Shown here in pieces: positions 3,240 through 23,904 of a stretch of 60,584 nt of DNA; positions within the stretch are counted from its first letter, which is position 1, and every line of letters begins with the position of its first letter. A model generated the notes under the pieces. It ran no database searches, was not told the origin of the DNA, and saw nothing but the letters and a program-made list of their open reading frames with translations. This DNA is from a virus. The DNA is taken from IMG/VR virus record IMGVR_UViG_3300045988_119623, positions 1-60,584 of that record, one strand, 5' to 3'. Both the position numbers and the translations under genes were made by a program.

Positions 3240-4568
3240 ATGGTAAAAAGAAAAGATAATTCAATTCGTGCAGACAGCGGATTTAAAGATGCTTTTATTG
3301 CACGTAAAGCTCGCAATTATGAAGGTCTGCTGAACGAGCGAAAACTCACAGACCAGGCTTTGGCTACAATGTACAGAAATGCTCTTGTGCGTAGAATTGT
3401 TACAATGGCTGCCGATGATGCTATGAAGAATTTTATAGAAATCGAAGGCGATTCTGACGATTGTATCTTGCAGGAGCTTGAAACGCTGTTTGTGCAGGAA
3501 AAGCTTACAGAAGCTTTATATTGGGACAGACTGTTCGGTATGTCTTGTGCTCTTATCCTTGCTGACGATGGCCAGGAGTTAAGCGAACCTATTAATATCA
3601 ACCGTTTACGCAGGATTAACGGATTAGAAATTTTTGACAAGCGAGATATTTACCCGGACACAACCTCAATTTATCTTGATACAGATATTCGAGATGCAAA
3701 TTTTGGCAAGCCGGAGTTTTACATGATTTCGCCACCGAACGGAAATCAGTTCAAAGCACACAGAAGCAGACTGCTGGTTTTTGACGGCGAAATGCTGCCA
3801 AAGATAGAGCGCATTGCTAATAATGGTGCTGGCTTATCCTGCCTGGATGGTGTTCCGGCTGCGCTGAACCGTGTAAAAACTGCAATGAATAAAACAATCG
3901 ACATAATGGATAAGGTTAGCACGTCACTGTTAAAGCTAGAAGGCTTAAGCAATTTACTGGCAAGAGAAGACGGCACGCAAGCTGTTATTCGGCGTTTAGA
4001 GCTGATAGACTACTCACGCAGAATTAATGGCAGTGTAGCCGTTGACAAGGAAGATGAATACGGCATTTTCAACATTCCGCTCACAGGCTTGACGGATATT
4101 ATTCAAGAGTTTGAGCAGGCTTTATGTGCTGTTACCGGGTATCCGTTTACTGTATTGTTTGGGCGTTCTCCAGCTGGCATGAACAGCACAGGTAAGAGCG
4201 ACCTGCAGATTTACTACGATAACGTCAGACGTATTCAACGCAGGAAAATTCGTCCTGCGTTAGAGTATCTTGTAAGACTTATCCAGCTTTCAAAAGAAGG
4301 ACCTACCAACGGCAAGGAGCTTGAAAAGTGGAGCATTAAATTTAAGGCAATCGAACCGCTAAATGATCTGGAACAAGCCAACGTCGACAAGACGCAGGCA
4401 GAAGTAAGAGCTGCCGTTGTTAAGCTTGTTTTTGACCTAGTTGATAATCAACTGTTAGACGCAACACAAGCACGCCAATACCTTAAAGAGCGTGGCGATA
4501 TTCCAGTTACAGAAAGTGAGCTGGATTTAGATGATGAAGAAACAGAAGAAATCAATACGTTACCTTAA
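3240..4568 (+). CDS. Portal protein (DUF1073/HI1409-like)
   Basis: 442 aa, located between terL and the Mu-F-like gene. Family assignment is from memory of the sequence pattern. Confidence 0.75.
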   Translation: MVKRKDNSIRADSGFKDAFIARKARNYEGLLNERKLTDQALATMYRNALVRRIVTMAADDAMKNFIEIEGDSDDCILQELETLFVQEKLTEALYWDRLFGMSCALILADDGQELSEPININRLRRINGLEIFDKRDIYPDTTSIYLDTDIRDANFGKPEFYMISPPNGNQFKAHRSRLLVFDGEMLPKIERIANNGAGLSCLDGVPAALNRVKTAMNKTIDIMDKVSTSLLKLEGLSNLLAREDGTQAVIRRLELIDYSRRINGSVAVDKEDEYGIFNIPLTGLTDIIQEFEQALCAVTGYPFTVLFGRSPAGMNSTGKSDLQIYYDNVRRIQRRKIRPALEYLVRLIQLSKEGPTNGKELEKWSIKFKAIEPLNDLEQANVDKTQAEVRAAVVKLVFDLVDNQLLDATQARQYLKERGDIPVTESELDLDDEETEEINTLP

Positions 4569-5409
4569 AGTAAAGAAGCGTCCAAAATATCCAAAGAATT
4601 TTGAACGTGATTATTATCGCGTCCTCAGAGCCGTTGTAAGACGTTTAAAAAGTGCCACGAATAACAATATACCAATGCTGACATATTCGCTGCGTCAGGA
4701 CGATGACAGCACCGTTACAGATGCTTTCGTTCAGGCGATACTTTTAGAGCTTTTAAAGAGCATGACTGTTGAGGAAGCTATAAGCGAATTAGAGCTTATT
4801 CTTGCTGGCGTGTCCAGCGTTGTCGATGCTAATGTTATCAGTGCCTTTGCGGAAGCAGTCAGCGTTGATGTGTTTTTAAATGATTCGGTTTTACTTGATA
4901 CAGTAAAAGCGGAATGGAAAGCGCAGCAAGGCAGGCTTGTGGACAGCATAGTCAATACCTACATCGAAAAGCTACAAATCATTGTAAGCAATGCTGTTCA
5001 GCGTGGTACTGCCATGAGCGAAGTTGAAGAAGAAATCAAGGTACTGCTTAACACTACCGACAAGCGAGCAAAATTTATTGCAAGGAATGAGGTAGGCAAT
5101 CTGAACGGCATTATAACGATGAGAAGGCAGGTTGATTGCGGTATAAGCGTGTATCAATGGTCATCGTCACATGATGAACGTGTCAGACCTTCTCATGCTG
5201 AAATGGATGGGAAATACTTCTATTGGAACAGCGATAAGATGGGCGAGATTAACGGCATAAAGGTTTATCCTTCTCCGAAATATCATCCGTGTATGGATTA
5301 TAACTGCCGCTGCGTAGCATTACCTGTTATTGACCTGGAGCAATGGAACATGACAACAGCAGTTCCAATGGGTAGGGTTGATGTAAAGAAAAGCAAAGAA
5401 TTAAGCTAG
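4531..5409 (+). CDS. Head morphogenesis protein, SPP1 gp7 / Mu F family
   Basis: Motif 'ARNEVGNLNG...SSSHDERVRPSHAEMDGKYF'. The exact start is uncertain. Confidence 0.85.
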   Translation: MMKKQKKSIRYLKVKKRPKYPKNFERDYYRVLRAVVRRLKSATNNNIPMLTYSLRQDDDSTVTDAFVQAILLELLKSMTVEEAISELELILAGVSSVVDANVISAFAEAVSVDVFLNDSVLLDTVKAEWKAQQGRLVDSIVNTYIEKLQIIVSNAVQRGTAMSEVEEEIKVLLNTTDKRAKFIARNEVGNLNGIITMRRQVDCGISVYQWSSSHDERVRPSHAEMDGKYFYWNSDKMGEINGIKVYPSPKYHPCMDYNCRCVALPVIDLEQWNMTTAVPMGRVDVKKSKELS

Positions 5410-5470
5410 AAGGCGTATGCGAGAAATTGCATATGCTTTTTATATACCCCAAAATAAGGAGGTGAATTTT

Positions 5471-6628
5471 TTGGGAAGTGTACAACGATATGAGCGCATT
5501 GATTCATGGATGTTTGTTAGCGGTGCAGTTACTGACGCTGACGGCTTCTTGCGTGATTCTCCGATTGTGGCACGTACTGGCATCTATATCTACCAACAGC
5601 CAGACGGGACTATTAGACGAGAGTACAGACCGCCGGAGGAAGTGTTCGACGCTGACAGTGAAGCAAGCTTTGTCGGAAAGCCTATTGTGGTAGGACACCC
5701 AGCCAGCGGCATTGTAAACAGCGATACCGCACAAGATTTAGCCATTGGCACGATTTTGTCCAGCGGTTATCAGAAGGACGAAACAAATATTGCCTGTGAC
5801 ATTGTTATCCATAATCCCTCTGCTATCGGTGAAAAGCGTGGCTTGTCTTTAGGTTACAGAGTGGATGTTGAAGAAACTCCAGGCACTACACCGGACGGAC
5901 AGCAATATGACGCTATCCAGCGCAACATTCGTATCAATCATTTAGCCGTTGTTGACAGGGCACGTGCCGGAGCAAAAGCACGGCTTAATCTTGACGGTGA
6001 CGAAATTATCGAAGGAGTAGAAACAAAAATGAAAATTAAAATTGATTCTGTTGATTTTGAAGTTGACGAAAAAATTGCTAACTATGTCAACTCTCTGCAA
6101 AACAAAGAAGAAAACGCTCGTGTAAAGCTTGATACAGCTAACACTGAGCTTAAATCTGTAAAGGAGCAAAATACCGCTCTTAAAGCTGATGCTGACGACA
6201 AAAAAGCTAAACTTGACGCAATGACCGCTGAACGTGACGGCTTGAAAGCTAAAGTTGATGCTGCTGACGCTGAAAAGGAGAAAGCTGTAAAAGAGGCTGT
6301 TGAAGCTGTAAAGGCTGATATGCAGGAACGTGCGGAGCTTGAAGAAACCGCTAAAATTGCAAAGGTTGAAAAAACCGATGGCTTGACCAACGCTGAGTTG
6401 AAAGCTGGCATTGTTAAAGCTGCTTTCGGCGAAAAATTTAAACTTGACGGTGCATCTGATGCTTATCTTGACGGTGCATATTCTGCTGCTAAAGAGATGC
6501 TTCGTAACGATAACGCAAAAAATCAAGCCGCAAAAGCTAAAGGCGGTGCTGAAAAGCAAGAAACTAAGAATGATTCTGCTAACGATGCACGTAGCCGCAT
6601 GATTGCACGTATGCGCGGCGAAGAATAA
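5471..6628 (+). CDS. Scaffold / prohead-protease-like protein (DUF2213-like N-terminus, coiled-coil C-terminus)
   Basis: SD AAGGAGG lies 8 nt before TTG 5471. The C-terminal half is Ala/Lys/Glu-rich and helical (KADADDKKAKLDAMTAERDGLKAKVDAADAEKEKAVKEAV). Confidence 0.6.
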   Translation: MGSVQRYERIDSWMFVSGAVTDADGFLRDSPIVARTGIYIYQQPDGTIRREYRPPEEVFDADSEASFVGKPIVVGHPASGIVNSDTAQDLAIGTILSSGYQKDETNIACDIVIHNPSAIGEKRGLSLGYRVDVEETPGTTPDGQQYDAIQRNIRINHLAVVDRARAGAKARLNLDGDEIIEGVETKMKIKIDSVDFEVDEKIANYVNSLQNKEENARVKLDTANTELKSVKEQNTALKADADDKKAKLDAMTAERDGLKAKVDAADAEKEKAVKEAVEAVKADMQERAELEETAKIAKVEKTDGLTNAELKAGIVKAAFGEKFKLDGASDAYLDGAYSAAKEMLRNDNAKNQAAKAKGGAEKQETKNDSANDARSRMIARMRGEE

Positions 6629-17549: not shown

Positions 17550-17919
17550 TTTAGCTTTAAACGCAAAGACGCATGACCTTGCTTTAAACGGTGATGTGCT
17601 GTTCATCGACAATGTTGAGCGTGTAGCGCAACAGATAAAAATACAGTTGCTTACTTTTTTAGGTGAATGGTTTTTAGATGTTACGCACGGCGTGCCTTAT
17701 CTCGATTATGTGCTTGTTAAAAATCCTAATTTTACGCTAATTAGAGAGCTTTTCCGTGAGCAAATTTTAAAAGTTGACGGAGTAAGCAATTTAGTTAGCA
17801 TTGATATTGATTTTGAATCTACTACGCGAAAAATGTTATTAAGCTATGAAGCAGAAACTGAATACGGCATGATTGTAAGGAAGGAGGTTTTAGGCTATGG
17901 AGTACGGAGTAACAGTTAA
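17542..17919 (+). CDS. Baseplate wedge protein, gp25/W-like (DUF2634-like)
   Basis: Motif 'IKIQLLTFLGEWFLDVTHGVPY'. SD AGGAGG lies 8 nt before GTG 17542; the ORF is open from 17533. Confidence 0.65.
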   Translation: MLDLALNAKTHDLALNGDVLFIDNVERVAQQIKIQLLTFLGEWFLDVTHGVPYLDYVLVKNPNFTLIRELFREQILKVDGVSNLVSIDIDFESTTRKMLLSYEAETEYGMIVRKEVLGYGVRSNS

Positions 17920-19312
17920 CGGTTTTGTCAGAAAGCGTTTGCCGGAGATTCGTGAAGATATTTTTAAAAGCTTGGAGCAAAATTTAGGCTCGACAGTTAG
18001 CCGTCAACCTAACAGCATGATAGGCGTTCTCGTTGGCGTGTATGCTGCTGAACTTGACAGAATGTGGCAGCTTTTAGAGCGTGATTATTATGACCGCTCG
18101 CCGATTAGTGCCAGCGAAGGCAGCTTAGACAATACGCTTGCTTACACCAATGTGCAGCGCAAGAAAGCTCAGGCAAGCTATCTCTATGCTGTATGTTATG
18201 GACGTAGCGGAATGGTTCTTCCTGCTAACTGCCAGATTAAAGATGCTTCCGGTTACAAATGGAATATTATCGAAGAAAGCACGATCACTCTTAATGATTG
18301 CGTACATGTAACGCTTGAAGTTGAAACGCCGACTAAAGGAAAGGTTTACAGTGTGCAGTTTGATAATGATGTAGTTATAAAATATACAGCGCAAGAAAAT
18401 GATACTGCGTTGATTGTCGCTGTTGCCTTGGCTTCTCAGAGCATTGAAAAGTGGCAAGGCAGTATTGTTGAAGGCAAACTGGTTTTTGAACGCACAGACA
18501 GGCGATATGGAGCTGTCGTTGTGCCTAACGAATCATTTGTAGTAACGCAGGTTGGAAGTCCTATTCGTTTTGATTGTGAGGAATACGGAGAAATTGAACC
18601 TTTGCTAAATAGCGTGAATTACATCAACACAAATTATGACGGCTGGTTTTCTGTTAGCAACGAATCTGAAACATATGTAGGGCGTGACTACGAAACAGCA
18701 TCCGAAGTTCGTCAGCGTTATGCGTCTGCTGTATTCAGAAACAGCATAGGAATGAAAGAAAGTATTAAGGCAGCATTACTTGAATTGCAGGATGTTACCA
18801 GCGTAACGATTTATGAAAACCGCTCTGATGAAACGGTTGATGGTTTAAAACCTCATTCCTTCCAGGCTATTGTTTTCGGTGGCGATGAAGAAGCTATTGC
18901 TCGCACTATCTTGAATGTTGCACCTTTAGGTATTGATACAAACGGCGATATTTGCGTTCGCATTGAGGACAGTGAGGGTGCAGCGCAAGATGTATGCTTT
19001 AGCCGTCCGCATGAGGTGCAGATTTATGTCAAGGTTATTATTAAAGAATATAACGAAGAAATTTTACCCGGTGATGCAATCGATAAAATTAAAAATATCG
19101 TTTTTGAACAGATTAGCAAGCTGTCGATGGGCAATGATGTTATTTATCAGCGTTTGCTTGGTCCTATTTACAGCGGTGTTGACGGTATTAGCTATATTGA
19201 GTGCAGCGTGTCTAAAGACGGTCAAACGTATAAGCAGGAAAACATTTCGATTGAACGTAATGAGCTGGCAGTAACAAAGCTTGCTAATGTTACTGTAGCT
19301 TTGGAGTTGTAA
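17897..19312 (+). CDS. Baseplate J-like protein
   Basis: 471 aa; follows the gp25-like gene, which is the canonical order. Confidence 0.7.
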   Translation: MEYGVTVNGFVRKRLPEIREDIFKSLEQNLGSTVSRQPNSMIGVLVGVYAAELDRMWQLLERDYYDRSPISASEGSLDNTLAYTNVQRKKAQASYLYAVCYGRSGMVLPANCQIKDASGYKWNIIEESTITLNDCVHVTLEVETPTKGKVYSVQFDNDVVIKYTAQENDTALIVAVALASQSIEKWQGSIVEGKLVFERTDRRYGAVVVPNESFVVTQVGSPIRFDCEEYGEIEPLLNSVNYINTNYDGWFSVSNESETYVGRDYETASEVRQRYASAVFRNSIGMKESIKAALLELQDVTSVTIYENRSDETVDGLKPHSFQAIVFGGDEEAIARTILNVAPLGIDTNGDICVRIEDSEGAAQDVCFSRPHEVQIYVKVIIKEYNEEILPGDAIDKIKNIVFEQISKLSMGNDVIYQRLLGPIYSGVDGISYIECSVSKDGQTYKQENISIERNELAVTKLANVTVALEL

Positions 19313-19314
19313 CC

Positions 19315-20001
19315 ATGACTACAAGCGAAAGAATGTATAACCATTTGTTAAGTCAGTTTCGCAACAAGCCTAACATTAAAGCTTTTCTTAATGCCGTTGG
19401 AAACGAACTCGACAGCATAGATAAAGTAAGGGAGCAGATAAGGACACAGATATGGCCAGATACTGCGGTTGGTAAGCAGCTTGATATGTGCGGTGAAGTC
19501 GCTGATATTACTCGCCGTGTTGAAAATGCTATTGCAATGGATTTTTTTGGTTTTCCTGATCATGGCAACATGGGATTCGGGCAAGCTCCGTTTAGACGTA
19601 TGTATGATAATTATCTTACATCCAGCGACTTAAACGACCGTTATTACCGTCTTGCTGTTATCTCGAAGATTGAGAAAAATACGACGGACTGCTCTCGCGT
19701 TAGCACTATACACAGCATAAAGAAAGTTTTTGGTGTTGAACGTATTTCTGCTGTAAATGCCGGAAATGCCAAAATGCGTATAGGAATAGGACGTTTAGTA
19801 ACAAGTCAAGAAAGCCGCTTGATTGATGCACTGAACCTTATTATCCGTGGCGCCGGTATTGGCGTAATTTATGTCTATTCTTTCGATGCTACAAATACGT
19901 TCGGCTTTAGCAGAAGCGGAGAAAATCCTTATAGGTTTAAAGGATTTAATCAAGGAACATTCGCAAGGATTATAAAGGTGAAAGGGGGACTTGTTGAATA
20001 A
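19315..20001 (+). CDS. Baseplate wedge / tail-fibre-connector candidate
   Basis: 228 aa; assignment is by synteny after the J-like gene. Confidence 0.5.
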   Translation: MTTSERMYNHLLSQFRNKPNIKAFLNAVGNELDSIDKVREQIRTQIWPDTAVGKQLDMCGEVADITRRVENAIAMDFFGFPDHGNMGFGQAPFRRMYDNYLTSSDLNDRYYRLAVISKIEKNTTDCSRVSTIHSIKKVFGVERISAVNAGNAKMRIGIGRLVTSQESRLIDALNLIIRGAGIGVIYVYSFDATNTFGFSRSGENPYRFKGFNQGTFARIIKVKGGLVE

Positions 20002-20450
20002 TGGTAATGAAACAGCCTACTTTTGATTTAATTTTTGGCAGCAGCGCAAGCGTCGGTGAGATGATTGATTCTTGGCCTGAGCTTGATTACCTGCGTGGTT
20101 GGGGGTATCTTGACAAAGGAGAAGCACCGCCGCTTGAATACTTTAACAAATTGCAAAATGTGAGCGATTTAAAAAGCCAGTACCTTTTTAACAGTTTAAA
20201 CATTCGCAAGAACAGTACATCTTATGCAAATGGCGACATCGTATTGTCACCCAACTTGCCTAAAAGTGTTGTCTTAGCTTGTATTGTTGGTGGCGATACT
20301 GCTGTGAGTGAACCGGATTTTAGCAAAGCTACAATCGGTGCAACTTATGTAGACGGTTCGGTAGCTTGGGAAGTTATTCCACGAGCTTACAGATTACAGA
20401 CAGCAACAAATGTTGAAATTCAGAATTTGATTACAAAGGAGCTTGCATAA
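20001..20450 (+). CDS. Hypothetical tail protein
   Basis: ATG overlaps the upstream stop codon; 149 aa. Confidence 0.5.
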   Translation: MVMKQPTFDLIFGSSASVGEMIDSWPELDYLRGWGYLDKGEAPPLEYFNKLQNVSDLKSQYLFNSLNIRKNSTSYANGDIVLSPNLPKSVVLACIVGGDTAVSEPDFSKATIGATYVDGSVAWEVIPRAYRLQTATNVEIQNLITKELA

Positions 20451-20872
20451 TGGCTAACTTGCAAAAATTGATTGATCTTGACGGATTAAGCTATTTTTTA
20501 GGGCAGATTAAAGCTAAATTTGTTCGGTCCGTAAATAACGTAAAGCCTGATTCAAGTGGCAATATTAATATCGCTAATATGACAGGCGCAACATACAACA
20601 GCTCCGGTAGAGCAGGACTTGCGCCAATTCCGGCAGCAGGAAAGCAGGATATGGCGTTATGCGGCGATGCTACATATAAAGTTCTTTCTATCTCTGGTGG
20701 CGGTACAGGACAAACTACCGTTGCTGGTGTTCGTTATGTTTTGGGTTTAGGTAATACGAACGGAGCATTGCCTATTGCTAATGGCGGCACAGGAGCTACA
20801 ACTGCCGAAGCTGCAAGAAGAAATCTAGGTATTGATAGTGTAGGTGTAACAATGATTACCTATACAGAATAA
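20450..20872 (+). CDS. Tail fibre protein (short)
   Basis: Contains 'LDGLSYFLGQIKAKF', 'VNNVKPDSSGNINI' and 'ANGGTGATTAEAARRNLG', all common tail-fibre motifs. Confidence 0.6.
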   Translation: MANLQKLIDLDGLSYFLGQIKAKFVRSVNNVKPDSSGNINIANMTGATYNSSGRAGLAPIPAAGKQDMALCGDATYKVLSISGGGTGQTTVAGVRYVLGLGNTNGALPIANGGTGATTAEAARRNLGIDSVGVTMITYTE

Positions 20873-20882
20873 GAGGTAAATT

Positions 20883-21071
20883 ATGGCTAATAAGGTAGAT
20901 GTAATTACATCGTGGAGCAATGCTGAAACTTATACCTTTACTGTTCCGGAAGGCGTTACTGAAATTACCGTAGAGATTTCAGGGGCTGGTGCTGGCGGTT
21001 ACGGAAGAAACTACAATGACAGTGGCAGTAGCGGTAGCGTTGGCGAATCAAGTGGCGGCGAAGGCAACTAA
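20883..21071 (+). CDS. 62-aa N-terminal piece of a glycine-rich tail protein domain, or alternatively a radical-SAM substrate peptide
   Basis: SD AAGAGGT upstream. Sequence 'ETYTFTVPEGVTEITVEISGAGAGGYGRNYNDSGSSGSVGESSGGEGN'. It parallels 'GTYSLRIPAGVTKIYVTGCGGGAGG' in the second domain of ORF 22146..23306. Confidence 0.6.
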   Translation: MANKVDVITSWSNAETYTFTVPEGVTEITVEISGAGAGGYGRNYNDSGSSGSVGESSGGEGN

Positions 21072-21078
21072 GGTACTT

Positions 21079-22143
21079 ATGAATAATTTTAGCGAAGAAT
21101 TACACGAGCTTAACGACCTGGGTGCGGTTTATCTTTTCCTTGGTACTGCTTGCAATATGTCATGTAGGCATTGCGTTCAAACTCCTATTAAAAGTTGTTT
21201 TAATCTTGCCCCTCATGGAAAAGAGTTATCGCAAGAGGTAAAAGACTTTATAGTTATGTGGAGTAACCTGCCTTGGAAATACGCTGAAAATAATCCTCGC
21301 AGATTATATTTTTGGGGCGGAGAACCTTTGCTTTATTGGGAAACCATTAAGAAACTCGTACTTGAGTTTAAAAAATTCGGCGTACAGAATGTTAGCTATA
21401 GAATTTTTAGTAACGGATTGCTTTTAAATAATGAAATAGTTGACTTCTGTAACGAGCATGATATTTGGTTTATTATGAGCTATGATGCACCGAACGCAAG
21501 AGCTGCGAGAAATGCAGTACCCAGTAAAGAAGCGTGTAAAAAGTTTTTGCGCATAAGGAAAAGAGCGGTTAACACTGTTTTTAATGCTATAAACGATAAC
21601 ATGGTAGAAGCTTTTGATTGGCTACATTATACGTTTCCTGGAACAGAAATCACTTGTGGTCTTATGAATGTGTTGAGTGAGCATACGCCGCTTGACCTAT
21701 ATCAATTTAAGCCTAATGCAGTAAGAAATGCAGTTAAAAATTTGTGGTTAATCGCAAATTCTGATAGTGAGATTGCTCCCTATATTCGACATTGGTTTTA
21801 CTCAAAAATCTTGCGTGTAAGGGGTTTTAACAAAGAAGAATTTTACAAATATCCTTATCCGCCTTGCCGTCCTGCTGTAGTAAGCCTTAGCGTAAATTTT
21901 AACGGAGAAATTATGCTGTGTCATAATACAGATAAGATTGTAGGGCATATTACAGATAACTTTACAGAGCTACAGGAAAAGCATAGAAAAATTTTTGAGG
22001 AACTTTTGCCTATTAAATGTAAGACTTGTGAGCATTTGGATATTTGCCGTTGTATTTGTCCTATTGCAGTACAAAAAGACGGTGAGTTATGCCATTGTGA
22101 TTACTTGCGAGAATTCTGGGGAGCAATAAAAGAGGTGATGTAG
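21079..22143 (+). CDS. Radical SAM enzyme with a C-terminal SPASM domain (354 aa)
   Basis: CX3CX2C 'CNMSCRHC' at nt 21151..21174 and SAM-binding 'WGGEPLL'. SPASM signature 'CRPAVVSLSVNFNGEIMLC' (CX12GX4C), then 'CKTCEHLDICRCIC' (CX2CX5CX3C), then further Cys residues 'CHC'. Confidence 0.9.
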   Translation: MNNFSEELHELNDLGAVYLFLGTACNMSCRHCVQTPIKSCFNLAPHGKELSQEVKDFIVMWSNLPWKYAENNPRRLYFWGGEPLLYWETIKKLVLEFKKFGVQNVSYRIFSNGLLLNNEIVDFCNEHDIWFIMSYDAPNARAARNAVPSKEACKKFLRIRKRAVNTVFNAINDNMVEAFDWLHYTFPGTEITCGLMNVLSEHTPLDLYQFKPNAVRNAVKNLWLIANSDSEIAPYIRHWFYSKILRVRGFNKEEFYKYPYPPCRPAVVSLSVNFNGEIMLCHNTDKIVGHITDNFTELQEKHRKIFEELLPIKCKTCEHLDICRCICPIAVQKDGELCHCDYLREFWGAIKEVM

Positions 22144-22145
22144 AA

Positions 22146-23306
22146 ATGGCTATAGGTTATGGCGAACGTGTAACAAGAACTATTAGTGTTACCCCTGGCA
22201 CGCAGTACACTATTACTATTGGTGCTGGCGGAAAAGGTGGCGAAGGTGTAACGACAAGCGATTCTGATTATGTTTATGGTACAGCCGGAGAAGCTTCTTC
22301 TGCATTAGGTGTAACTGCCAGAGGTGGCGTTTATAGCGGCAGTAGTAGCACTAATTACTCTAGCGGCGGTTCACCTGTTGGCAATTCTAGTAAGGTACAA
22401 GGCAGTACAGGGGGTAACGGTGTAGACGGATTTTGCATTTTATCTTATAAGGTTGACAAAGATAAGTATTCAAAAAAAATGAGTAGCATTCCGGAAACTG
22501 TTTTTGAGATGCAAAAAAAAGACGGCTCGAAGTATCTGCTGTATAAAGATGTAGTTACGTTAAAGCGTACAAGACTTATCTATAAAACCGTAGGCACTTA
22601 CAGTTTGAGAATTCCTGCTGGCGTTACAAAAATATATGTTACTGGTTGCGGCGGTGGAGCTGGCGGTATTACTGTTGGTGCTTATAATGCCTGTCCCACG
22701 TTGGATATGCAAGCAGGAAACGGCGGAGATACGAAAGTTGGCAGTTATGTTATTTCCGGCGGACAAGGCGCAACTGCTACTTTAAGAAGCGGTAATGTAA
22801 TGACTGTTAATCAGCCTGCTGCTTCTAAAAATGGTGTAAGAGGACAATATGTTACCGCCAGAAACAGGGATTTTTCTGTACATGGATACGGTTTTCCGCT
22901 TAACAAGAATGGTGTCGCTTCTTTAGCAAACGTAATGGATAAGGTTGGATATTACTATGCTAATGTGCTAGGAACGAAAGATAGCGTAACTTATACATCT
23001 ACAGGAACCTTTGAATCGTTTAACATCTATGGTGCAGGTGGCGGTTCATTTCATTTTTTTGACTCTGATGGTACTTCTAATCAAATTGGTGTTGCAGGAA
23101 ATAGCGGTGCTTATGTTGCTGATGTAGAAGTTGAAGTAACTCCGAACAGTACTATTCAAATTGTTGTAGGCGCAGGAGGTAAAAACACCTTTTACAGTAA
23201 CGACGGCGACCGTGCAAAAAGATTTAGAGTGAGTGACGGAACACAAGGTTTTGTTATTATTGAATATGGTGGAGCAACACCATATATTCCAACAACAAAT
23301 AAATAA
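22146..23306 (+). CDS. Glycine-rich-domain tail protein: the remainder of domain 1 plus a complete domain 2
   Basis: SD GAGGTG lies 9 nt upstream. Domain 1 remainder: 'GYGERVTRTISVTPGTQYTITIGAGGKGG...GFCILSY'. Domain 2: 'TYSLRIPAGVTKIYVTGCGGGAGG...VEVTPNSTIQIVVGAGGKN...GFVIIEY'. Confidence 0.75.
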   Translation: MAIGYGERVTRTISVTPGTQYTITIGAGGKGGEGVTTSDSDYVYGTAGEASSALGVTARGGVYSGSSSTNYSSGGSPVGNSSKVQGSTGGNGVDGFCILSYKVDKDKYSKKMSSIPETVFEMQKKDGSKYLLYKDVVTLKRTRLIYKTVGTYSLRIPAGVTKIYVTGCGGGAGGITVGAYNACPTLDMQAGNGGDTKVGSYVISGGQGATATLRSGNVMTVNQPAASKNGVRGQYVTARNRDFSVHGYGFPLNKNGVASLANVMDKVGYYYANVLGTKDSVTYTSTGTFESFNIYGAGGGSFHFFDSDGTSNQIGVAGNSGAYVADVEVEVTPNSTIQIVVGAGGKNTFYSNDGDRAKRFRVSDGTQGFVIIEYGGATPYIPTTNK

Positions 23307-23319
23307 GGGGGTAAAAAAA

Positions 23320-23904
23320 TTGGCAAGTACAACAGGTAAGTTAGATAAAATTCATGTATTCCCTAGTTATAATAGCTTTAATAAAAACATTTCTAGTGTT
23401 AACAGTAATGATTTTGCTTTTGTTAAAACAGATTTGTTAGATAAGCTTGCAGGAAACACTACACCTACACTTGTAGCATTAATTGATTGGGATACCATGA
23501 AAACAAGAAATGGTGGTACAGATGTAAGAAATATTAATAATACTTCTACAGGCATTAGAGCTTATGGCGGTGATGCTTCTTTCCCGACAACATCGGGCGG
23601 AAGTGACAGAACGAGAAGTACAATAATGCTTAAAGAATCTTACACACTGTATGATAAGATTTTGGTGGTTGGAAGTGGCGATACTGGTAGTGATATTAAA
23701 TACGAATTGCACGATGTTTGGAATTTACAAAAAGCATTTTCTGAAGGATATAGTTTTTATCTTATTAATGACTATAGCTCTTATTGGTGCCTGTATTCAG
23801 GGGTGCAATCTGGAACAACTACTCACCTTCTTTCGACAGATACTATTTGGTACAATGCATCCCAAAACAGCTCTATCATTGAAATTTATGGAGTTAAGTA
23901 TTAA
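23320..23904 (+). CDS. Hypothetical tail-fibre-region protein
   Basis: SD AAGGGGG lies 8 nt before TTG 23320; 194 aa. Confidence 0.5.
   Translation: MASTTGKLDKIHVFPSYNSFNKNISSVNSNDFAFVKTDLLDKLAGNTTPTLVALIDWDTMKTRNGGTDVRNINNTSTGIRAYGGDASFPTTSGGSDRTRSTIMLKESYTLYDKILVVGSGDTGSDIKYELHDVWNLQKAFSEGYSFYLINDYSSYWCLYSGVQSGTTTHLLSTDTIWYNASQNSSIIEIYGVKY

Follow-up and report, generated by a model that had tools for sequence, protein, structure and literature searches.

A phage sequence from the IMG/VR collection (record IMGVR_UViG_3300045988_119623, positions 1 to 60,584; the window, below, is this whole stretch of 60,584 nucleotides) encodes a glycine-rich tail domain in two pieces, with the gene of a predicted radical S-adenosylmethionine (radical-SAM) enzyme lying in the break. 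The upstream piece is a 62-residue protein that ends in a short tail of glycine, serine and glutamate, and about 20 phage lineages from gut and rumen carry a radical-SAM gene after tail proteins with the same kind of ending. This recurrence points to virion proteins being modified by an enzyme in a way not yet described. Our preferred explanation, to which we give a probability of roughly 0.6, is a virion protein that is bipartite by design: the N-terminal piece would end in a free tail modified by the co-encoded maturase, and the two pieces would co-fold.

One domain encoded by two genes

The split module consists of three consecutive genes: open reading frame (ORF) 1, the radical-SAM gene and ORF3 (22146..23306, 386 aa). 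ORF1 and the radical-SAM gene are separated by 7 nucleotides (nt), the radical-SAM gene and ORF3 by 2 nt; the spacing between ORF1 and ORF3 is 1074 nt, of which the radical-SAM ORF occupies 1065 nt. The features of the locus, with the type of evidence in brackets, are the following.

20883..21071, + strand: ORF1, N-terminal piece of the split tumor necrosis factor (TNF)-like/glycine-rich domain, 62 aa (Gly_rich_2, model strands, substitution rates, kept in relatives)
21000..21038, + strand: variable stretch of ORF1, residues 40-52, YGRNYNDSGSSGS (comparison of close relatives)
21039..21068, + strand: C-terminal tail VGESSGGEGN of ORF1, proposed substrate of the radical-SAM enzyme (tail found across lineages of the enzyme)
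21079..22143, + strand, ATG at 21079: predicted radical-SAM/SPASM maturase gene, 354 aa, without a RiPP recognition element (Fer4_12, TIGR04085)
21151..21174, + strand: CX3CX2C motif CNMSCRHC, ligands of the radical-SAM [4Fe-4S] cluster (read from the sequence; cysteines invariant in the alignment)
21865..22098, + strand: SPASM region with C263, C281, C314, C317, C323, C327 and C340 invariant (SPASM model and alignment)
22146..22460, + strand: N-terminal 105 residues of ORF3, C-terminal piece of the split domain (Gly_rich_2, alignment to P0157, model strands)
22461..23306, + strand: rest of ORF3, made up of a linker plus a second glycine-rich domain without interruption (motif order; Pfam)
20450..20872, + strand: tail-fiber protein, 140 aa, preceding the split module and given as context only (matches to PHROG tail-fiber families)

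The Pfam profile Gly_rich_2 (PF21722) matches ORF1 (translation MANKVDVITSWSNAETYTFTVPEGVTEITVEISGAGAGGYGRNYNDSGSSGSVGESSGGEGN) at residues 14-55, corresponding to profile positions 3-43, and ORF3 at residues 5-95, corresponding to positions 41-129. Since these profile coordinates abut, the ORF3 piece begins where the ORF1 piece ends. ORF3, in which Pfam places two Gly_rich_2 stretches, reaches 42.2 bits (cut-off 24.3); by itself ORF1 gets only 19.6 bits, since it holds just positions 3-43 of the profile. PHROG families match ORF1 at internal positions of longer proteins only, for instance at 154-193 of 407 or 659-711 of 924.

A first-pass annotation of the window had proposed that a glycine-rich domain is split by a radical-SAM gene almost filling the gap, that the second domain of ORF3 shows the same motifs in their intact order, and that a relative with an uninterrupted gene should be aligned across the junction. 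Its coordinates and quoted motifs are exact, the motif order in ORF3 is confirmed, and the split is borne out by Pfam, by PHROG, by an unsplit protein and by a structure model of the joined pieces. The unsplit protein, P0157 (264 aa), is a distant homologue from a phage tail module with no radical-SAM gene within 6 kb. It aligns across the junction (...SWNTAGTYTFTVPEGV...GGAGGQGEDIKQTVSV...), and the N-terminus of ORF3 aligns with it directly after that point. A query with ORF1 and ORF3 joined retrieved 81 proteins; the close ones all cover the ORF3 part only, and P0157 alone spans the junction. None of the 150 best relatives of P0157 among 1.8 billion representative proteins has the tail ending. 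Short homologues of P0157, considered as further N-terminal halves, were rejected as truncated calls without the tail.

With relatives of P0157 as the alignment, AlphaFold2 folded ORF1 joined to residues 1-111 of ORF3 into one domain (predicted local distance difference test, pLDDT, 83; predicted template modeling score, pTM, 0.79). In this model ORF1 supplies strands 4-11, 15-20 and 27-33, the ORF3 piece supplies strands 70-76, 82-87 and 158-166, and confidence is low in the tail and junction region only (residues 41-66). A single-sequence prediction of the joined pieces gave a pLDDT of 44 and was unusable. Foldseek matched the joined model to the mycobacteriophage Bxb1 tail tip (9D93), the cyanophage Pam3 fiber (7YFW) and the glycine-rich domains of ALK/LTK (7LIR), and the predicted fold is of TNF-like plus glycine-rich architecture. 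In Pam3 gp24, glycine-rich hairpins make up the receptor-binding tip (PMC9608196). Residues 40-52 of ORF1 vary between close relatives, residues 1-39 and the tail being nearly constant; by likeness to other glycine-rich domains, the first hairpin would have its distal tip in this variable stretch.

The three-gene layout is kept in 10 of 10 IMG/VR relatives, which are 85-95% identical. Against these relatives the ratio of nonsynonymous to synonymous substitution rates (dN/dS) of ORF1 is 0.09-0.18, at dS up to 0.7, and close homologues of ORF3 all start at the same place, with MA(I/T)GYGE. Judged by these comparisons, the split is no defect and is kept under purifying selection.

A distinct family of radical-SAM/SPASM enzymes

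The enzyme encoded in the break carries the hallmarks of the radical-SAM superfamily. It scores 25.5 bits with Fer4_12 (cut-off 22) and 26.2 bits with PF04055, just below the cut-off of 29.5, and CNMSCRHC at residues 25-32 and FWGGEP at residues 78-83 are invariant in 31 homologues. The SPASM model TIGR04085 gives 29.6 bits (cut-off 27), and C263, G276, C281, C314, C317, C323, C327 and C340, arranged as CX9-15GX4C ... CX2CX5CX3C ... C, are likewise invariant. With C25, C29, C32, the GGE motif and all seven SPASM cysteines retained throughout the 31 homologues, the enzyme looks catalytically intact. For SPASM enzymes in general, seven invariant cysteines may be compatible with auxiliary cluster I having an open site that binds substrate.

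Of solved structures, TigE (8VPO, E = 6e-29) is the closest, followed by CteB (5WGG, 1e-21). Both alignments begin past the RiPP recognition element (RRE; RiPP, a peptide synthesized ribosomally and modified post-translationally) of these enzymes, and the cluster motif of the phage family already stands at residue 25; the family therefore lacks an RRE. None of the curated equivalog models comes near its cut-off, and the enzyme belongs to a distinct, uncurated family. Homologues in a large protein collection number 76, from 98% down to about 20% identity. Genomic neighborhoods were gathered by contig look-ups and by scans of viral, genome and metagenome collections; loci obtained in this way carry L numbers below. 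Over all fetched radical-SAM ORFs, scores with a hidden Markov model (HMM) of the family are bimodal, at least 443 bits as against at most 234 bits, and the family is thus sharply bounded. The high-scoring group comprises 65 loci, or 19 clusters at 90% identity.

In PHROG the enzyme matches only phrog_1802, a 'radical SAM domain-containing protein', and phrog_27668, of unknown function, and the sole name given by any source is "radical SAM protein with 4Fe4S-binding SPASM domain". Among GenBank phages blastn found no match and tblastn only partial matches, none above 31% identity; the family is absent from the isolated phages of that collection. A paper on the tail motif, or on the action of radical-SAM enzymes on phage tail proteins, was not found in full-text literature searches.

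A C-terminal tail found next to the enzyme

The end of ORF1 recurs wherever the enzyme is found. A tail of the type (S/C)GGEG, followed by 0-2 residues and a stop codon, is present in 20 of 21 informative lineages of the enzyme (34-98% identity). Where upstream DNA is visible, a protein with this ending lies directly before the radical-SAM gene (17 of 17 clusters at 90% identity); L254, L256 and L257 also have the tail-bearing ORF directly upstream. Ser-type endings include ..GESSGGEGN*, ..GEGSGGEGA* and ..GEGSGGEGS*, Cys-type endings ..DDSSCGSEGGCGGGEG and ..SCSVDSSGCGGEGG, and further examples are ..GEGSGGEGSGGE and ..SQGEGSFSEGEGGGF; Cys and Ser interchange at aligned positions. At locus L166 (1..1730) a 452-aa ORF on the opposite strand stands where the gene of the N-terminal half would be expected, a situation that rearrangement, an inserted element or misassembly could have caused.

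The association of tail and enzyme is exclusive in the DNA fetched. Among 4593 plus-strand ORFs of at least 60 aa, the motif occurs on 61, and all 61 adjoin a radical-SAM gene of the family (57 a full gene, 4 a gene cut by the contig end). In the reverse direction, the strict DNA pattern GEGSGGEG-x-stop was found at 14 places in 2.9 million IMG/VR viral contigs, eight of which are family loci; of the other six, five have no family radical-SAM gene and a poor coding context, and one (L245) is cut by the end of the locus and uninformative.

Tail codons vary, by synonymous changes that include AGY and TCN for serine. Because they vary freely, selection on the tail acts at the protein level. A role of the tail as a Shine-Dalgarno sequence or other DNA element was rejected on the same ground, and also because the tail does not precede the radical-SAM gene in one clade (L024 and relatives, below). 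The tail is always the extreme C-terminus and is carried by otherwise unrelated proteins of 62 to 751 aa: the 62-aa ORF1, fiber-tip proteins of 171-206 aa, fiber proteins of 355-751 aa that contain Ig-like repeats, and fragments of nozzle proteins. Tail-bearing fibers without a glycine-rich domain are found at L023, L037, L109, L168, L254 and L257; Pfam returned no match for these proteins.

Tail and enzyme vary together

Tail type follows the phylogeny of the enzyme. The enzymes that accompany Cys-type tails (L041, L046) are mutual nearest relatives, at 48% identity, and share at most 41% with every enzyme that accompanies a Ser-type tail; the latter are all at least 42% identical to one another. 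The fiber-tip proteins of L041 and L257 share 49% identity as far as ...TTQPYD, beyond which L041 has a Cys-type tail and an enzyme of the Cys clade, and L257 a Ser-type tail and an enzyme of the Ser clade. As these related fibers each carry the tail that matches their own enzyme clade, tail and enzyme have been exchanged together. We regard such joint exchange as the strongest indirect sign that the enzyme acts on the tail.

L041-L044 (about 4381..6450) are siblings that share the baseplate and fiber-base genes of the window and have a different tip module, composed of a 206-aa protein ending in ..DDSSCGSEGGCGGGEG*, a radical-SAM enzyme 40% identical to that of the window and a 137-aa protein. 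This looks like a host-range cassette swapped along with its maturase.

Two other arrangements of the split

The order of genes is not fixed. In the clade of L024, L035, L164 and L165, the tail-bearing N-terminal half comes first, the C-terminal half second and the radical-SAM gene third, the two halves being adjacent and overlapping by ATGA. Because the enzyme gene follows both halves here, the split is tied to the tail and not to the position of the radical-SAM gene.

The second arrangement occurs in T7-like podoviruses, at L021 (3300..7212) and L256 (2312..6175), where two ORFs share the nozzle protein (tail tubular B; phrog_376 / Pfam Phage_nozzle) between them. They part near phrog_376 position 170, inside an inserted glycine-rich domain, and the break contains a radical-SAM gene of the family. 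At L021, a 234-aa ORF matches phrog_376 at 4-177, then Gly_rich_2 at 1-43, and ends in the tail; the radical-SAM gene is next, followed by a 692-aa ORF that matches phrog_376 at 167-711. At L256 the two pieces match phrog_376 at 3-198 and 162-711, the second containing Gly_rich_2 37-157 and Phage_nozzle. The inserted unit is thus the whole cassette (N-terminal half of the domain with the tail, enzyme, C-terminal half) inside the nozzle gene. Since the cassette sits inside an essential virion gene, the two nozzle products must reassemble. Compared with the window, the N-terminal halves are 43-55% identical, the C-terminal halves 32-37% and the enzymes 56-66%, a similar divergence.

Reading frame, composition and the origin of the split

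Two further observations of the first-pass annotation concerned the way in which the split arose. One was that ORF1 and ORF3 share a reading frame. In the window they do, 20883 and 22146 both being 0 mod 3, but the property is not conserved: in L002, which is 88% identical, ORF3 lies in another frame, and the frames also differ in L021 and L256. The shared frame is a coincidence and no evidence. The radical-SAM gene itself lies in a different frame, with its own start and stop. The other observation was a contrast in G+C content. This is no evidence either and is explained by glycine codons: the radical-SAM gene has a GC of 0.37 and a GC at third codon positions (GC3) of 0.32, and its flanks have a GC of 0.45-0.47 with 19-22% Gly codons. 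Neighboring genes span 0.34-0.48 in GC and 0.24-0.48 in GC3. As the GC3 of the radical-SAM gene falls inside this range, its composition is unremarkable and a foreign composition was rejected. No duplications bound the gene. The sole exact repeat, a 12-nt direct repeat TGGTGCTGGCGG at 20987..20998 and 22220..22231, encodes GAGG in both domain pieces; it does not bound the radical-SAM gene and mirrors the glycine-rich motifs. As microhomology it could have guided recombination.

The same annotation favored a gene-in-gene insertion and offered a deliberately bipartite protein as its alternative. A two-piece protein with the radical-SAM gene at the break, conserved under selection, is indeed what the window holds. 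A simple cut of an intact gene is not supported, given the gene order of the L024 clade, the (S/C)GGEG tail on unrelated fibers and the presence of the whole cassette inside a nozzle gene. The alternative is the better option.

Proposed mechanism and competing explanations

In the mechanism we propose, ORF1 would give beta-strands one to three and the initial glycine-rich hairpin of a receptor-binding domain of TNF-like/glycine-rich type, and would end in a free, flexible tail (...GESSGGEGN-COOH). The maturase, which is without the leader-binding RRE, would recognize the C-terminal (S/C)GGEG-repeat tail directly, thread this flexible acidic segment into its active site and modify the (S/C)-x-x(-x)-E unit by radical chemistry. 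ORF3 would give the remainder of the domain, the two pieces co-folding into one module on the virion. The need for a true C-terminus would then be what leads a normally single-chain domain to be encoded in two genes. We infer that the tail is the substrate, that a reaction of this kind occurs and that the pieces reassemble non-covalently.

The chemistry is the least secure step of the proposal. Our leading guess is a small (thio)ether ring that links the side chain of Ser or Cys with the Glu lying three or four residues further downstream. For Cys-type tails, a ranthipeptide-like thioether to Glu would be the natural guess by analogy; for Ser-type tails the options are an ether, formylglycine by oxidation, for which the acceptance of Cys or Ser by anaerobic sulfatase-maturating enzymes is a parallel, or epimerization (of Glu). 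TqqB makes an aliphatic ether, and the same review covers the C-S bridges of sactionine type (PMC9389541). Considering its gene position, the enzyme may double as a tail-fiber assembly factor.

Several points weigh against this proposal. One lineage, L166, has the enzyme and the C-terminal half but no visible tail-bearing ORF, and is the sole exception to the association. The loci were mostly fetched via the enzyme, the reverse association being checked with one strict DNA pattern only. Cysteine is missing from most tails, and the conserved core of the tail has side chains on Ser and Glu only. The joined structure model is an artificial single chain and not two chains. Finally, the candidate substrate is assigned solely through gene neighborhood and co-variation.

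Four other explanations were weighed. The radical-SAM gene could be a selfish or neutral insertion that serves another purpose (metabolic, anti-defense or on another target) and landed in a tolerant loop, leaving fragments that still assemble and a tail that is a hairpin remnant. Inserted free-standing genes are known to have produced genes-in-pieces in phages; the gene lies exactly at the break in the window, L108, L021 and L256, and the tail is similar to GGAGGQGE, the glycine-rich return motif of the intact hairpin in P0157. A hairpin remnant would nevertheless not be expected on fibers that have no glycine-rich domain, nor to associate exclusively with the enzyme and co-vary with its clade. 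In the L024 clade the enzyme is encoded away from the break, and the gene shows neither compositional anomaly nor flanking duplication; we regard an insertion of this kind as unlikely. It is very unlikely, in turn, that the two ORFs yield one chain through RNA splicing, translational bypass or frameshifting. The shared frame in the window would suit such joining, and a frameshift is conceivable at the ATGA overlap of the L024 clade, but the frame differences described above speak against it, as does the intervening 1.07 kb, which is a conserved, selected protein gene. Protein conservation runs up to the stop codon of ORF1, the ATG of ORF3 is conserved, and within 20300..23500 Rfam gave no family of any kind, introns included, at gathering score. 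A frameshift in the window was also considered behind the length of 587-588 aa of many ORF3 homologues and was rejected, as these carry a different C-terminal extension, a modular difference.

The remaining two explanations give the tail a role. It might be a handle for docking, the radical-SAM-fold protein being an assembly factor of the fiber that modifies another fiber residue or nothing. Fiber chaperones are usually encoded directly downstream of the fiber gene, which is where the radical-SAM gene lies, its start codon often overlapping the stop codon of the fiber gene. Against this, the ligands of all three clusters and the SAM-binding motif stay invariant over 32-98% identity, which argues for retained catalysis, and the Cys/Ser type of the tail tracks the enzyme clade as a substrate would; in PHROG, the enzyme matched no chaperone family of the Tfa, gp38 or gp25 type. 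We see little probability in this explanation. Alternatively, the enzyme might stitch the protein together after translation by cross-linking the tail of the N-terminal piece to the C-terminal piece or to a neighboring subunit. Two core proteins that are normally single chains, the TNF-like/glycine-rich domain and the podovirus nozzle, are split in this way, and SPASM enzymes form C-S, C-C and C-O cross-links. On the other hand, many family members have no second piece (L023, L037, L109, L254), the N-termini of the C-terminal pieces are not conserved (MAIGYGE, MAGELKK, MGNNGGR) and, to our knowledge, the characterized SPASM cross-links are all intramolecular, so that we hold stitching to be improbable. 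A more elaborate version is a long shot as well: a portable receptor-binding cassette dropped into unrelated virion genes (myovirus fiber, podovirus nozzle), with the enzyme covalently locking two polypeptides or neighboring subunits via the tail. If true, such locking would mean that an enzyme re-joins a split structural protein after translation; for the first time, separate protein chains would be cross-linked by a radical-SAM enzyme and RiPP-type chemistry would be shown to take part in virion assembly.

Genomic context and further loci

Baseplate wedge and baseplate genes lie upstream of the split module, at 17897..20001 (PHROG). Because these and tail-fiber genes surround it, the locus forms the distal tail module of a baseplate-bearing phage. 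Between ORF1, the radical-SAM gene and ORF3 no terminators were found, and counts of promoter-like and terminator-like sequences at the locus are not above those of shuffled sequence. ORF3 stops at 23306, and the next gene apparently starts with TTG at 23320, where relative L001 has ATG (region 23290..23330).

A second, more distant phage system is found at L047-L057, L180, L186, L188 and L191 (for instance L053, 3267..6747), at 150-234 bits to the family HMM. Its tail-fiber proteins end in Cys-rich tails such as ..SNCNCKCDCACSNNDEE*, and the fiber gene is followed by two radical-SAM genes (one of about 300 aa with CNLLCRYC, the other of about 355 aa with SPASM) and a gene for a protein of about 230 aa. 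At L024 (5225..7957), a second, unrelated radical-SAM gene (335 aa) follows the gene of a 573-aa protein ending in ..SYDDYGGDS*; this may be a second fiber-maturase pair. RVT_1 reverse-transcriptase genes lie close to tail-fiber genes at L023 (8333..9071) and L159 (3813..5075), which suggests diversity-generating retroelements acting on nearby receptor-binding proteins.

In the prophage of Succiniclasticum ruminis DSM 9236 (L110 / L037, 3662..6110; contig NZ_FONL01000010.1), a 443-aa fiber ending in ..GEGSGGEGSGGE* precedes a radical-SAM gene of the family. Two ORFs after the latter form, by position and sequence, a putative lysis cassette. As the host is a cultured rumen bacterium, this prophage is an experimental handle on the system.

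Implications

Were the proposal correct, phages of the anaerobic gut and rumen would modify the tips of their receptor-binding proteins with a radical-SAM/SPASM enzyme of their own, RiPP-type chemistry would extend from secreted peptides to virion structure, and a puzzling class of split tail genes would be explained. A new enzyme-substrate pair would be defined, with (S/C)GGEG as a very short, portable tag at the C-terminus. Prediction and engineering of host range in such phages would have to include the maturase, and fibers expressed aerobically or without the enzyme may be inactive. Annotation pipelines will miscall ORFs of 60 aa and fibers that appear "truncated".

Comparison with known systems

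Close parallels are the thioether and ether maturases CteB, PapB, QhpD and TqqB, which likewise combine a radical-SAM core with a seven-cysteine SPASM domain and have the substrate gene immediately upstream. The spacing of Cys-x-x(-x)-Glu/Asp in Cys-type tails resembles ranthipeptide motifs, and QhpD, as the phage enzyme would, acts on a complex subunit instead of a secreted peptide. The NCBIfam model of PapB (NF047865) aligns to the enzyme of the window at positions 3-317 of 330, yet with 48.7 bits against a cut-off of 340 and with no cysteine in the tail of the window, where a PapB-type substrate has Cys-X3-Asp/Glu, the enzyme does not belong to that family. Unlike the substrates of these maturases, the putative substrate in phages has no leader, and the enzyme no RRE; the candidate site is the extreme C-terminus of virion proteins of 62-751 aa, and most phage tails have Ser where thioether maturases require Cys.

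Anaerobic sulfatase-maturating enzymes (anSMEs) are also RRE-less radical-SAM proteins with a SPASM domain, of similar size, that act on a whole protein, and they accept Cys or Ser at the target position, in parallel with the Cys and Ser tails. The enzyme of the window, however, scores 34 bits with TIGR03942 (cut-off 349.45), the C/S-x-P/A-x-R motif is absent from the tails, and the seven SPASM cysteines are the only ones that are invariant in the phage family; we do not class it as an anSME.

With the cyclopropyl synthases TvgB and TigE the comparison concerns the repeat. Their substrate has short tandem repeats such as TIGSVS or TVGG (PMC10878394), and (S)GGEG is likewise a short repeat. These enzymes have a strictly conserved GYW motif, in which Tyr ligates auxiliary cluster I, and their repeat has Val or Ile (PMC10878394). 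In the phage family GYW is absent, the aligned residues being W-F in an HWFY context, the tail has no conserved Val or Ile to cyclize, and the RRE located at residues 3-85 of TigE is missing; the family is thus distinct from these synthases. Nor is the system a RiPP in the classical sense: there is neither leader nor RRE, and the putative substrates are tail proteins of 62-751 aa whose C-terminus carries the motif. In the gene lists read for the loci, which were not a systematic survey, neither a protease nor an exporter was noticed.

On the structural side, the joined ORF1 and ORF3 model groups with the TNF-like/glycine-rich domains of Pam3 gp24, the Bxb1 tail tip, S16 gp38 and ALK/LTK, through its matches to 9D93, 7YFW and 7LIR. 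The examples read about or matched are described as single chains, whereas in the window the chain is interrupted where the first glycine-rich hairpin has its base, and is paired with an enzyme. Among split phage genes, nrdA of Aeromonas phage Aeh1, split by mobE, is a case of genes-in-pieces from an inserted free-standing gene. There too two ORFs encode a conserved protein around an unrelated gene, with reassembly of the pieces expected. In the window, by contrast, the intervening gene is not a homing endonuclease and is coupled to a motif on the upstream piece, and the split persists when the radical-SAM gene lies elsewhere, as in the L024 clade. What is new here in relation to all these systems is a predicted SPASM maturase with a new putative substrate class, C-terminally tagged, leaderless virion proteins, coupled to split structural genes.

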